From a virus (taxonomy: Duplodnaviria > Heunggongvirae > Uroviricota > Caudoviricetes): a DNA stretch of 30,411 nucleotides. The stretch is taken from the IMG/VR virus record IMGVR_UViG_2562617133_000007; one strand, 5' to 3'. This document shows positions 15,343-17,472 of the stretch, one piece after another. Below the pieces are notes generated by a model that made no database searches, had not been told where the DNA came from, and worked only from the letters and a program-made list of their open reading frames with translations. The position numbers and the translations under genes are program-made. Within the stretch, counting starts at the first letter, position 1. Each line of letters opens with the position of its first letter.

Positions 15343-16661
15343 AAAAGTTGATCGCACTTAAGCATAAGCTGGACGAAATGAAAGCTATGGGAACCAATGC
15401 AAAAAAAGAGGCATTGGCCAACATGGATGACTTTGAACAAAGCATGGTTTCATTGATGCTCAACCCTTTCATCCGTTTTGGGGTAAAGAAATACAAAGTG
15501 GCAGAGCCGCTTAGTGAGTCCGTCCCAAGTGACGAAAAAGCCATTGATGTACTGAATAAGCTGGCCTCTCGCGAGCTGACGGGGAACGCAGCAATAGCTG
15601 CTGTTGAGTCTATCGTGGCGTCAATGTGCGCCGATGGGCAGGACGTGTTCCGTCGTTTCCTCTTAAAAGACCCGAAAGCGGGTGTTGGGATTAGCCTATG
15701 CAACAAGGTTTTTGAAAATCCCATTCCGAAATTCGAGGTGCAGCTGGCGTCACCGTATAAAGAAAAAGGCGACAAATACCCCTTCAAGCCAAACCCTAAA
15801 GCAAAATGGCCGATGATTGGCAGTCTTAAGCTCGATGGTTTGCGAGTAATTTGCGAGGTTATTGTTGACGAGGAAGAGGTTAACTTCCTTTCTCGTACTG
15901 GTAATCCAATCACGTCTCTCGATCACCTAAAGCCAGCAATGCTCGAATTAGGCAAACTTTCAGGCCACAAACACATCTTCTTCGATGGTGAAGGAACAGC
16001 CGGTTCATTTAACCAGTCCGTATCTGCATTGCGCAAAAAGAACGTGCAGGCAATTGGCGCTATTTATCATGTTTTCGACTTCTTCCTACCGGAATGGCGG
16101 GCACAGGCTAAATCCAAAGAGTATGCAAAGACAGGTATGAAGCTGAAAGAGCGCCTGGCTATTCTCGTGGCGTTGTTCAAAAACGATCGCAGTGAAGGCT
16201 ACACACAAGACATTCACCTGCATCCGTTCTATATCATCCATAGCCACGAAGACTTCATCGAACGCTTCATGAAACGCCTTGACGATAACGAAGAAGGGGA
16301 GATGGGCAAAGATCCGAACTCTGTTTACGAGTTTAAACGTACCCGCAGCTGGTGGAAGTTAAAAGACGAAGATTCAGAAGATGGTGAAATTATCGACTTT
16401 GAGTCGGGCGACCCGGACTCTGGTTTTGCCAACACGCTTGGAAAAATTGTTATTCGCCTTGAAAACGGTGTGATTGTTCGTGCGAGCGGCATTAAGCATA
16501 AATATCTGGACGAGATCTGGAACAACAAAGAGAAGTACCGTGGTCGTATTGTTGAGGTTCATTGTCACGAGAAAACACCGGACGGCAGCTTACGCCACCC
16601 ACGACTGAAATGGCCGCGTTGCTTACGCGATACAGAAGATCGAATCGGAGATAAAGAATGA
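15339..16661 (+). CDS. ATP-dependent DNA ligase
   Basis: Adenylation motif I KLDGLR (KxDGxR) in IGSLKLDGLRVICEV, plus downstream FFDGEG and WWKLK motifs; 440 aa. Confidence 0.85.
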   Translation: MKKLIALKHKLDEMKAMGTNAKKEALANMDDFEQSMVSLMLNPFIRFGVKKYKVAEPLSESVPSDEKAIDVLNKLASRELTGNAAIAAVESIVASMCADGQDVFRRFLLKDPKAGVGISLCNKVFENPIPKFEVQLASPYKEKGDKYPFKPNPKAKWPMIGSLKLDGLRVICEVIVDEEEVNFLSRTGNPITSLDHLKPAMLELGKLSGHKHIFFDGEGTAGSFNQSVSALRKKNVQAIGAIYHVFDFFLPEWRAQAKSKEYAKTGMKLKERLAILVALFKNDRSEGYTQDIHLHPFYIIHSHEDFIERFMKRLDDNEEGEMGKDPNSVYEFKRTRSWWKLKDEDSEDGEIIDFESGDPDSGFANTLGKIVIRLENGVIVRASGIKHKYLDEIWNNKEKYRGRIVEVHCHEKTPDGSLRHPRLKWPRCLRDTEDRIGDKE

Positions 16662-16837
16662 TGCTCGGCTGGATGATTGCATTTTTAGCGGTTGGTTTTT
16701 TAATCGGTATTGTGGTGATGTCCAGTTGCATCAATGACTACATTAAAAGCGGTGTTATAGAACGACGCGGTCGTATTTATCGCATTGTAGAAATAACCCA
16801 CACAGTGAAGGAGATTAAGGATGATCGTATTAAGTAA
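16658..16837 (+). CDS. Small membrane protein (59 aa), paralogue family member 1
   Basis: Not in the ORF track (below 60 aa). ATG overlaps the ligase stop. N-terminal TM (MMLGWMIAFLAVGFLIGIVV) then RRGRIYRIVEITH motif. Confidence 0.4.
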   Translation: MMLGWMIAFLAVGFLIGIVVMSSCINDYIKSGVIERRGRIYRIVEITHTVKEIKDDRIK

Positions 16838-17036
16838 GCGGGAGAAGGAAACGCTTCATGAAATCAGTAAGTGGCCGGAGTTCCCTGAGTACTGGAAGCC
16901 TAAAACGCGGGCTAAGTTAGAGCGGTTAGGGTTGGTTGCAAACGTTTCTGAAACGTGGTGCTCGGCCAACTACCAGTTAACTGATAAAGGGAAAGTATTG
17001 CTACAGCAATTAGTAGAATCAGGAGCGTTAGAATGA
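16821..17036 (+). CDS. Hypothetical protein
   Basis: 71-aa ORF overlapping the upstream small gene; its stop overlaps the next ATG (ATGA). Confidence 0.45.
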   Translation: MIVLSKREKETLHEISKWPEFPEYWKPKTRAKLERLGLVANVSETWCSANYQLTDKGKVLLQQLVESGALE

Positions 17037-17185
17037 TTCCATACATCTCATTAGCTTTTATGGCTGGTTTCCTTATCGGCTTCGGCATCTGTCGTGACTT
17101 AATTAAGCAGGAACTTAAAACCAAAACACTGTGCATCGGAAAGCGTGTGTATCGGGTAATTCATGAAACAAAGGTGAGAAAATGA
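17033..17185 (+). CDS. Small membrane protein (50 aa), paralogue family member 2
   Basis: Not in the ORF track. MIPYISLAFMAGFLIGFGIC TM then GKRVYRVIHET motif matching the 16658 gene. ATGA overlaps on both sides. Confidence 0.4.
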   Translation: MIPYISLAFMAGFLIGFGICRDLIKQELKTKTLCIGKRVYRVIHETKVRK

Positions 17186-17472
17186 GCAATTTAACTTCTT
17201 GGGACTGGTGGTTGGTACACTATTTCATCGCGACTGGAGTCGGATTCGCCTTTTACGTAGGTCAGTTAGTCGTAAAACTGCTGCTGATTAAATTTGCCAG
17301 TCATAAACGTATCGATGATTGCCTGTGGCGTCTTGGCACCCTGGTGGAAACTCGCTACGGGCAACTTAAGGAGAACGAAACCATTACTATCCAAGCGAAA
17401 CGATTCACTGCAACCATCACAAGAACACCTGATCGTAGAGTGGCCATGATCAAAAAAGTCACAACCGAATAA
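17182..17472 (+). CDS. Small membrane protein (96 aa), possible third paralogue
   Basis: N-terminal TM (WWLVHYFIATGVGFAFYVG); AAAGGTGAG RBS; start overlaps the preceding stop. Confidence 0.5.
   Translation: MSNLTSWDWWLVHYFIATGVGFAFYVGQLVVKLLLIKFASHKRIDDCLWRLGTLVETRYGQLKENETITIQAKRFTATITRTPDRRVAMIKKVTTE

Follow-up and report, generated by a model that had tools for sequence, protein, structure and literature searches.

The locus lies in a window, meaning the whole stretch of DNA that was analysed (30,411 nucleotides), which matches plasmid pTIC (MF554642.1) at 100% identity and represents a phage-plasmid of the SSU5/pHCM2/pMT1 type. The region of the locus showed 73-98% identity to Cyrano, SSU5, pHCM2 and pMT1, with the value for Cyrano, a phage-plasmid of E. 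coli LF82, being ~96-98%. The chain of overlapping genes found here comprises a 156-aa gene, an ATP-dependent DNA ligase gene, which carries the label DNA ligase in Cyrano, SSU5, pMT1 and pHCM2 as well, and four small genes designated A, B, C and D (Table 1). The open reading frames of A-D were found at the positions at which the preliminary description had placed them. These genes close the 3' end of a block of replication genes (helicase, primase, ..., ligase) and are bordered by the ligase upstream and by tRNAs downstream.

Table 1. Coordinates of the genes and sequence features at the locus
Feature	Coordinates	Strand	Remarks
156-aa gene (phrog_5055)	14872..15342	+	First in coupled chain; homologue CYRAN_35 in Cyrano
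ATP-dependent DNA ligase, 440 aa	15339..16661	+	Pfam DNA_ligase_A_M, E=3.2e-13
Near-repeat, left copy GGAGATAAAGAATGAT, 16 nt	16647..16662	+	Shine-Dalgarno motif and start of A
Gene A, 59 aa (phrog_4381)	16658-16837	+	ORF, PHROG profile
Near-repeat, right copy GGAGATTAAGGATGAT, 16 nt	16810..16825	+	Shine-Dalgarno motif and start of B
Gene B, 71 aa (phrog_4054)	16821-17036	+	ORF, PHROG profile
Gene C, 50 aa (phrog_6302)	17033-17185	+	ORF, PHROG profile
Gene D, 96 aa (phrog_4507)	17182-17472	+	ORF, PHROG profile
AT-rich hairpin GAUAAGUA-UUUACU-UACUUAUC, then UUUU	17482..17507	+	Just 3' of the stop codon of D; MFE -13.3 kcal/mol, z=-2.9

The chain had been described as coupled by ATGA throughout. 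All the junctions do overlap, and four of them (156-aa gene/ligase, ligase/A, B/C and C/D) have the ATGA form, but A and B share 17 nt, ATGATCGTATTAAGTAA, instead. In the interval 13200-18300 the promoter scan revealed no sigma-70-like promoter on the + strand. The hairpin behind D, which was missed by the scan for G+C-rich terminators, is possibly a weak intrinsic terminator that ends the unit. That the small genes lack annotation is true of the source gene table, which is incomplete and lacks A, B and C, and of A in Cyrano; it is not true of the RefSeq entries of pMT1 and pHCM2, in which A and C are annotated.

On comparative grounds all four of A-D are genuine protein-coding genes, translated by stop/start coupling. 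The median dN/dS was 0.17 for A, 0.07 for B, 0.17 for C and 0.11 for D, at dS of ~0.9-2.5. Each of the four starts is preceded by a Shine-Dalgarno motif of the GGAG type, even in lineages with protein identity as low as 42%, and the coupling persists where C starts with TTG, the overlap then being TTGA. The locus is present in ~750 plasmids of PLSDB, including pMT1 of Y. pestis and pHCM2 of S. Typhi; by tblastn, matches were obtained in 532 plasmids for A, 637 for B, 682 for C and 653 for D. The order of A-D is kept in more than 600 plasmids and the reading frames of A and C in more than 500, and synteny is strict throughout Escherichia, Salmonella, Yersinia, Klebsiella, Enterobacter and Cronobacter. 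Each of the four proteins has a catalogued home in the PHROG families listed in Table 1, which they match at full length with E=1e-36 to 1e-58 (A to phrog_4381, E=7.9e-39, 1-59/59; C to phrog_6302, E=4.5e-36, 1-50/50).

The relationship between A and C was analysed at the protein level. The preliminary description had proposed them as a duplicated pair of tiny membrane proteins, to be abandoned if their likeness did not exceed chance, and the comparisons of the whole proteins and families placed it above chance. BLASTP aligned the two proteins over 45 aa with 33% identity and a pairwise E value of 7e-6. The Smith-Waterman score was 58 against 25.9 +/- 6.0 in shuffled sequences (p=1.5e-4), the null model keeping the composition of the transmembrane (TM) part and that of the tail each separately. 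The alignment of the A family with the C family by hhalign gave a probability of 68% without the divergent Klebsiella lineage and 92.9% when this lineage was added (E=3.6e-7, 46 ungapped columns), and A' against C' gave E=2e-7. The shared motif R.YR[IV][VI].[IE]T has just two matches in all six reading frames of the window, one in A and one in C, where ~0.0008 occurrences are expected for this pattern, which was defined post hoc. The joint alignment of 28 A and C sequences is ungapped with invariant G13, G17, R39, Y41 and T47. These profile and alignment results identify A and C as true but ancient paralogues of an undescribed family. No DNA-level repeat between the two genes was found; the duplication is therefore old, and a recent duplication at the DNA level was rejected.

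In PHROGs, A and C stand in separate families of 'unknown function'. Among the 36 members of the family collected here, 26 matched phrog_4381 and 16 matched phrog_6302, so that some members match both. The link between these two families, the single-copy form X described below and the pairing of X with D are unrecorded in PHROGs. Remote members of the wider family (E=1e-4 to 1e-6) came from an HMM search over 1.84 billion representatives; where the context was usable (L018, L019), they lie on metagenomic phage-like contigs, adjoining nuclease or recombination genes. Scans of IMG/VR found no relatives of the remote members P0145 and P0147, and the scan with P0132 returned only one further SSU5-like contig.

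The build of the proteins was examined by hydropathy, charge and structure prediction. A single hydrophobic window of 19 residues is present in each of A, C and D, with a mean Kyte-Doolittle value of 2.60, 1.95 and 1.75 respectively, while B has no such window (0.33); the claim that the 96-aa protein D also begins with a TM helix is thereby supported. No K or R residue precedes the TM helix in A, C or D, and 9-13 follow it. This charge distribution places the hairpin of A and C in the cytoplasm (N-out/C-in), and A is predicted to be a bitopic membrane protein of this orientation. In A the TM helix covers residues ~5-25 with invariant G13xxxG17, followed by a beta-hairpin at 33-42 with R39-x-Y41-R42; in C the helix carries G12xxxG16 and the hairpin at 32-41 carries R38-x-Y40-R41. 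The AlphaFold2 models of A (H3-30, E33-36, E39-42) and C (H3-29, E32-35, E38-41) revealed identical topologies, with a pLDDT of only ~55-70 in the hairpin. In the proposed A/C/X superfamily the N-terminal TM helix with its GxxxG is joined by a helical linker to a short, basic beta-hairpin bearing R-x-Y-R, and both A and C contain the helix and the hairpin with these motifs, collinear and at fixed spacing. G12 is invariant and G16 near-invariant in the 36 members; apart from these two glycines the TM helix is variable, and the strongest conservation lies in the soluble hairpin. The periplasmic part amounts to 1-6 residues in A and C and ~17 in D, hence the conserved surface of all three is expected to be cytoplasmic. 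GxxxG mediates TM helix dimers of the glycophorin A type, and this motif, known here from sequence, is the only feature A and C have in common with them. The same motif would fit the oligomers of a pore or a toxin equally well.

Scans of the chain proteins against Pfam, NCBIfam and PADLOC gave nothing significant for A, C and D, and the Pfam scan of the 36 family members gave scattered marginal matches only. The PDB sequence search with the family profiles returned nothing below E=0.08, and Foldseek found no match of the model of A in BFVD and PDB below E=2.6. A literature search on the locus tags, the PHROG identifiers and the label 'C-type natriuretic protein' in plasmids found no papers.

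Protein D, which always lies 3' of C or X, was predicted by hydropathy and charge to have a cytoplasmic domain behind its N-terminal TM helix. It had been counted as a third paralogue; this part of the proposal fails, as D shows no detectable relationship to the A/C family. The hhalign probability was 0.4-2.8% (2.8%, 0.4% and 1.0%), the Smith-Waterman shuffle gave p=0.57-0.62, and the sole aligned stretch was the hairpin (D 65-77 with C 30-42, 1% probability). D is labelled 'C-type natriuretic protein' in many records; no such Pfam match was found at E<=0.1, and this label is a propagated misannotation.

Protein B is soluble, and its 17-nt overlap with A was found in all lineages having both genes, including the divergent Klebsiella lineage (L014). 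B is kept in most of the variants examined and was lost together with the ligase and A in L025/L026. It had no match in Pfam and only weak Csa3/CARF-HTH matches in PADLOC. The weak local similarities over the recognition-helix/wing region, none of them significant, to the C-terminal domain of Csa3 (E=0.0015), to TubR (E=0.87) and to HxlR/MarR-like proteins (HxlR-like, E=1.3), suggest that B may be winged-helix-like (wHTH-like), and its label in Cyrano is 'putative transcriptional regulator'.

The ancestry of the pair was traced in sister lineages (L016, L022, L023 and L027), which have a single gene, X, with a D-like gene behind it. In sequence X is closer to the C family (37-46% identity) than to the A family (only 17-29%), and C is the positional orthologue of X. 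Klebsiella plasmids (L025/L026) have kept C-D after deletion of the ligase, A and B, and one lineage has kept X-D beside a truncated ligase. From the single X with its D-like gene, and from the C-D pair that outlived the ligase, A and B, the X/C-D pair is probably the ancestral unit and independent of the ligase. The association with the ligase noted earlier stands as one translationally coupled chain, but the tie is positional rather than obligatory. X was probably duplicated in the SSU5/pHCM2/pMT1 clade, A being the derived copy coupled to B, and C remaining coupled to D.

Losses within the chain were also mapped. Gene A is flanked by the two near-repeat copies of Table 1 (14/16 identical), and the junction in L005 shows A to be lost precisely between them. 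Among 220 E. coli plasmids A is missing from ~81, while B, C and D each occur in 218-220. Klebsiella sublineages have a truncated C or a replacement of both C and D. D occurs without C in K. oxytoca and B without A in many E. coli plasmids, which indicates that the partners are not strictly interdependent. The comparison of these natural variants establishes A, C and D as conserved yet individually dispensable, each of them being lost in some variant. Anti-restriction or defence-type cargo near the loci of relatives includes Lar (L016), Tad2-like (L022/L023) and AbiH (L025) genes.

Expression in the prophage state is available for one relative from one study, giving values for the ligase, B, C and D. 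In LF82(Cyrano) lysogens the values were 5.9 units for the ligase, 6.4 for B, 5.0 for C (the zero-read floor) and 7.6 for D, against a local background of 9.8 and a moron cut-off of 49 (PMC9928086 S1 Table). The lysogeny-expressed genes of Cyrano itself stand 5-723x above background, and none of B, C and D was well above the prophage background as a lysogeny-expressed moron would be.

Our best guess, which is tentative and leaves considerable room for other readings, is that A, C and D serve as lytic-phase inner-membrane tethers or adaptors for their coupled partners. They would belong to the early or lytic programme as accessory proteins. A and C may pack in the inner membrane via GxxxG as homo- or hetero-oligomers, and the cytoplasmic hairpin may hold the co-translated partner (D in the case of C, B in the case of A) or nucleic acid against the cytoplasmic side of the membrane. 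They would thus act as tethers or adaptors rather than as pore-formers or prophage immunity factors. Counting against this reading are the Pfam, NCBIfam, PADLOC, PDB and Foldseek searches, which returned no homologue of known function, the low pLDDT of the hairpin, the fit of GxxxG to pore or toxin oligomers, the plasmids that keep D without C or B without A, and the origin of the expression values in one relative and one study.

The p16.7 protein of phi29, an early and non-essential protein with an N-terminal TM helix and a cytoplasmic domain, offers a parallel to such tethers. Like it, A, C and D are small, have an N-terminal TM anchor and a cytoplasmic C-terminus and are encoded with replication genes. 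The analogy is one of mechanism only, as no PDB sequence or Foldseek match to p16.7 was obtained, and phi29 is a protein-primed Gram-positive phage, unlike the Gram-negative phage-plasmid here. Both p16.7, an integral membrane protein, and p1, which is membrane-associated, have been proposed to anchor the viral replication machinery to the membrane (PMC4974454). A bolder form of the tether reading, which we consider rather improbable, would make X-D and its derivative A-B an unrecognised tethering module of Gram-negative phage-plasmids, in which bitopic proteins packed through GxxxG build a small sheet from their cytoplasmic hairpins. In the lytic programme this sheet would hold D, B or DNA at the inner membrane and so organise how the ~110-kb replicon is replicated or segregated, as a functional analogue of phi29 p1/p16.7 with an unrelated fold.

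A doubtful but serious competitor is that the proteins are host-takeover or anti-defence effectors, whose hairpins would bind and inhibit a host inner-membrane or membrane-proximal protein in the lytic phase (a defence sensor, protease or division protein, for instance); the duplication and patchy loss would then be adaptation to different hosts. The small size, membrane anchoring and individual dispensability of the proteins are in accordance with this, as are the losses of A, the truncation or replacement of C and D, the Lar, Tad2-like and AbiH genes near relatives' loci and the silence in lysogens, which fits a lytic-phase role. However, A, C and D match neither PADLOC nor any known anti-defence family, and steady purifying selection with strict synteny is unlike the fast turnover of an arms race. 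The tight coupling, with the 17-nt A/B overlap retained at 42% identity, points instead to partners within the phage.

Membrane damage is very unlikely, whether the proteins are pictured as lysis timers resembling holins or antiholins or as killers resembling type I toxins, oligomerising in either case through GxxxG. Like Hok/Gef type I toxins and phage holins, A and C are ~50 aa long with one TM helix and a basic tail, and one of the 36 members had a marginal holin match (E=0.048). Against this, no endolysin or lysis cassette adjoins the genes, which lie between the ligase and tRNAs, and conservation peaks in the soluble hairpin, whereas the TM helix varies except for its two glycines. Neither the window proteins nor the 36 members gave a significant Hok/Gef or holin match in Pfam. 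Antisense or stand-alone toxin architecture is not apparent either, since the genes are translationally coupled within an operon, in a stop/start chain where the scan of 13200-18300 gave no sigma-70-like promoter on the + strand.

It is highly unlikely that A, C and D guard the cell carrying the plasmid-prophage through superinfection exclusion or immunity. The genes are indeed carried by a resident phage-plasmid, and small inner-membrane proteins are common among superinfection-exclusion factors, for example T4 Imm and P22 SieA. However, the silence of the ligase, B, C and D in Cyrano lysogens, below the local background, argues against prophage immunity, and so do the few periplasmic residues and the cytoplasmic position of the conserved surface. 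The last alternative, that A-D are chance ORFs or that the A-C likeness is a chance match of two hydrophobic peptides, is practically untenable, for although the proteins are short and hydrophobic and the matches of the tail alone (p=0.06) and the TM helix alone (p=0.019) are weak, it is effectively refuted by dN/dS of 0.17 at saturating dS with frames kept in hundreds of plasmids, by the collinear shuffle score, by hhalign and by A' against C', the negative controls against B being non-significant.

In other respects the locus is unremarkable among phage genes for small membrane proteins. Phage-plasmids of the SSU5 type are common in clinical Enterobacterales, and A-D are among the conserved hypothetical proteins of their replication block, two of which prove to be ancient paralogues with a defined architecture. 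The analysis removes the 'C-type natriuretic protein' misannotation and links two PHROG families, and natural knockouts are on hand for comparison.

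The coding evidence for the four small genes that follow the ligase gene, here called A, B, C and D, was analysed. The reading frames lie where the preliminary description had placed them. They had also been described as a chain of stop/start overlaps, and an overlap is present at every junction; it takes the form ATGA at only four of them (156-aa gene/ligase, ligase/A, B/C and C/D), whereas A and B overlap by 17 nt. A GGAG-like Shine-Dalgarno motif at the usual spacing precedes all four starts in every lineage examined, and in a divergent Klebsiella lineage, where C starts with TTG, the overlap with the B stop is retained as TTGA. 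The median pairwise dN/dS was 0.17 for A, 0.07 for B, 0.17 for C and 0.11 for D, for orthologues from Cyrano (pLF82, the near-identical phage-plasmid of E. coli LF82), SSU5, pJN2-26, pMT1, pHCM2 and Klebsiella and Cronobacter plasmids, with dS near or beyond 1. The tblastn search of PLSDB matched 532, 637, 682 and 653 plasmids, respectively. By their dN/dS, Shine-Dalgarno motifs and tblastn counts, all four are real genes. They fall in the already catalogued PHROG families 4381, 4054, 6302 and 4507, each of unknown function. Many GenBank/RefSeq records, the source record included, label D 'C-type natriuretic protein'; a Pfam scan lent this name no support, and it is apparently a misannotation passed on between records.

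A, C and D each contain a single strongly hydrophobic stretch of 19 residues, and B contains none; no lysine or arginine lies N-terminal of it, while 9-13 lie C-terminal. The motif R.YR[IV][VI].[IE]T, given in the preliminary description as part of the build that A and C share, occurs in these two alone when the window is read in all six frames. Pairwise BLASTP of A and C gave 33% identity across 45 residues (E=7e-6). As transmembrane (TM) helices inflate similarity scores, TM and tail segments were permuted separately, and the Smith-Waterman score of 58 still stood above the shuffles (25.9 +/- 6.0; p=1.5e-4); neither A nor C scored significantly against B or D in this test. The evidence strengthened with each addition of more divergent sequences. 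In the divergent Klebsiella lineage (replicon cluster 2469; L014/L015), which keeps the identical order of the four genes, A' and C' resemble each other more than A and C of the window do (37% identity, 46 ungapped residues, E=2e-7), and inclusion of this lineage raised the hhalign probability for profiles built from database homologues from 68% to 92.9% (E=3.6e-7, 46 ungapped columns). The joint alignment of 28 diverse sequences runs without gaps from the initiator Met through the motif, with G13, G17, R39, Y41 and T47 invariant and R42 nearly so, and some family members match both PHROG profiles (4381 and 6302). AlphaFold2 models share one topology, a helix (3-30 in A, 3-29 in C) followed by two strands (33-36 and 39-42; 32-35 and 38-41), with high confidence for the helix and modest confidence for the hairpin. 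No DNA-level repeat was found between the two genes. These results make A and C paralogues of ancient origin. D, proposed as a third duplicate, was rejected as having no detectable relationship to them: hhalign gave at most 2.8%, and nothing but its own predicted hairpin could be aligned.

Plasmid pTIC (MF554642.1, 113 kb), from an uncultured bacterium, matches the region 16600-17500 at 100% identity. Identity is 95-98% for Cyrano and numerous E. coli plasmids and about 68-78% for Salmonella phage SSU5, S. Typhi pHCM2, Y. pestis pMT1 and plasmids of Klebsiella, Enterobacter, Citrobacter and Cronobacter, with 752 matching PLSDB records in total. Judged by these matches, the window is part of an SSU5-type phage-plasmid. 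Its gene content includes a tail fibre gene, a DnaB-type helicase, a primase homologue, the ligase chain, a tRNA cluster, an integrase and CobT/AAA genes. The Sel1-repeat and 137-aa genes, flanked by the primase homologue on one side and the CYRAN_34 homologue on the other, look like inserted cargo, because Cyrano has nothing at the corresponding position. Cyrano carries Asn/Thr/Ser tRNAs and SSU5 and pJN2-26 only Asn; tRNA content is thus variable among close relatives.

Features of the window and of related loci (L numbers denote related plasmids or contigs)
Feature	Sequence	Coordinates	Strand	Remark
Sel1-repeat protein gene	window	12002-13255	-	417 aa; signal-peptide-like N-terminus; Pfam Sel1 E=5e-56
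Lipoprotein-like gene	window	13483-13896	+	137 aa
Ligase	window	15339-16661	+	
Near-repeat, left	window	16647-16662		16 nt
A	window	16658-16837		59 aa
Near-repeat, right	window	16810-16825		16 nt
B	window	16821-17036		71 aa
C	window	17033-17185		50 aa
D	window	17182-17472		96 aa
D stop to first tRNA	window	17473-18261		~790 nt; no convincing ORF; no Rfam match at gathering threshold
tRNA cluster	window	18262-18889		Asn-GTT, Tyr-GTA, Thr-TGT, Ser-TGA
Lipoprotein-like ORF	window	19183-19737	+	184 aa
NinH and Lar (restriction alleviation)	L016	6962-7636		3' of X-D/C-D
Tad2-like gene	L022/L023	8168-8689		3' of X-D/C-D
AbiH abortive-infection gene	L025	3786-4658		3' of X-D/C-D
Protein in place of D	L011	1783-2199		138 aa
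Protein in place of D	L012	1726-2142		138 aa
C/D fusion ORF	L013	2071-2244		57 aa

The HMM search with the joint A/C profile against 1.84 billion representatives returned 26 proteins at E<=1e-3. Three of the 26 (P0130, P0132 and P0136) showed 37-46% identity to C and only 17-29% to A. Two of these three, P0132 and P0136, occur as single-copy genes (X) in sister SSU5-like lineages of 104-111 kb, in which the order is ligase, X and a D-like gene, with B absent; ligase and X are coupled by ATGA or by 1 nt (TGATG), and X overlaps the D-like gene by 8-14 nt. In the window the ligase is linked to A by ATGA coupling, but the association of the small genes with the ligase is not obligatory, as X-D is retained in L022 beside a 3' ligase remnant and C-D in Klebsiella plasmids L025 and L026 after deletion of ligase, A and B. 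This single X-D arrangement and its survival of ligase loss indicate that C-D is probably the old, ligase-independent unit and A the derived copy. A always overlaps B by 17 nt, down to 42% identity. In more distant members (E=1e-4 to 1e-6) the hairpin motif is still in register; where the context was usable, they come from metagenomic phage-like contigs and adjoin a gene for a YqaJ-type exonuclease (L018) or for an SNase-like nuclease (L019). In relatives, the region beyond D carries defence-related genes that differ between loci, and it seems to act as a hotspot for variable cargo.

Natural losses were also catalogued. Gene A is missing in some 81 of the 220 E. coli plasmids, by precise excision between the 16-nt near-repeats GGAGAT[A/T]AAG[A/G]ATGAT flanking it, which hold the Shine-Dalgarno motif and ATGAT; B is then ATGA-coupled to the ligase. 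The near-repeats are thus the apparent substrate of deletion in about one third of E. coli members. In a Klebsiella sublineage a 57-nt microhomology deletion removed the TM helix of A. K. pneumoniae plasmids L011 and L012, with C cut off at about residue 25 and an unrelated protein with a hydrophobic C-terminal tail replacing D, read as a cassette swap at the C-D position. One K. oxytoca plasmid is missing C. Buttiauxella plasmid L013 is without A, and in its short ORF the N-terminal part of C (MIPYI...) continues directly into the middle of D (...VKMFFVKFASHKRI...), which marks a deletion fusing both TM proteins; a dual-specificity phosphatase gene and an ars operon follow. On these natural losses, A, C and D are each judged dispensable for maintenance of the element.

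Expression was assessed from the LF82 transcriptome (normalised FPKM+5, LB overnight; PMC9928086), Cyrano being about 96-98% identical to the window in this region. The lysogen values were 5.9 for the ligase, 6.4 for B, 5.0 (the zero-read floor) for C and 7.6 for D, A being unannotated in Cyrano, compared to a Cyrano background median of 9.8 and a moron cut-off of 49; genuine lysogeny-expressed genes of Cyrano stand 5-723 times above background (PMC9928086). In the plasmid-prophage state the chain (ligase, B, C, D) is therefore silent, and its expression presumably falls in the lytic programme that follows induction. No sigma-70-like plus-strand promoter was found from 13200 to 18300; an AT-rich hairpin and then UUUU open the sequence directly 3' of the D stop. 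The 184-aa ORF directly after the tRNA cluster equals CYRAN_43 in length and occupies its equivalent position but on the opposite strand. For CYRAN_43, expression in LF82 lysogens is reported to be 723 times above background (PMC9928086); if the putative homology holds, this ORF and not the small genes would be the gene of this neighbourhood with strong expression in lysogens.

A and C span the membrane once and are predicted to lie N-out/C-in by the positive-inside rule; their most conserved positions are the TM glycines (GxxxG) and the hairpin R-x-Y-R, and their genes are translationally coupled to specific neighbours. Helix-helix packing via GxxxG would let them oligomerise in the inner membrane, and the basic cytoplasmic hairpin may hold either nucleic acid or the protein translated together with it (D in the case of C, B in that of A); during the lytic programme they would then serve as tethers or adaptors at the membrane. 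Functionally, the closest analogues are phi29 p1/p16.7, for which a role in anchoring the viral replication machinery to the membrane has been proposed (PMC4974454); no homology of A/C to them was found. A lytic-phase effector of host takeover or anti-defence is a plausible alternative to the tether. Prophage immunity, also suggested earlier, is disfavoured and unlikely, the chain being silent in LF82(Cyrano) lysogens. A membrane-damaging holin or toxin is likewise disfavoured, as both gene context and conservation pattern speak against it. Chance, of the ORFs or of the A-C likeness, is refuted.

The observation of the preliminary description is thus correct and the A-C paralogy real; its functional interpretation finds support only in part, since D is no paralogue, the ligase link is not obligatory and immunity is unlikely. 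Overall the proteins are modestly interesting and largely ordinary small phage membrane proteins; what is new is the link of phrog_4381 with phrog_6302, a defined architecture for the A/C family, the ancestral X-D pairing and the catalogue of natural knockouts.
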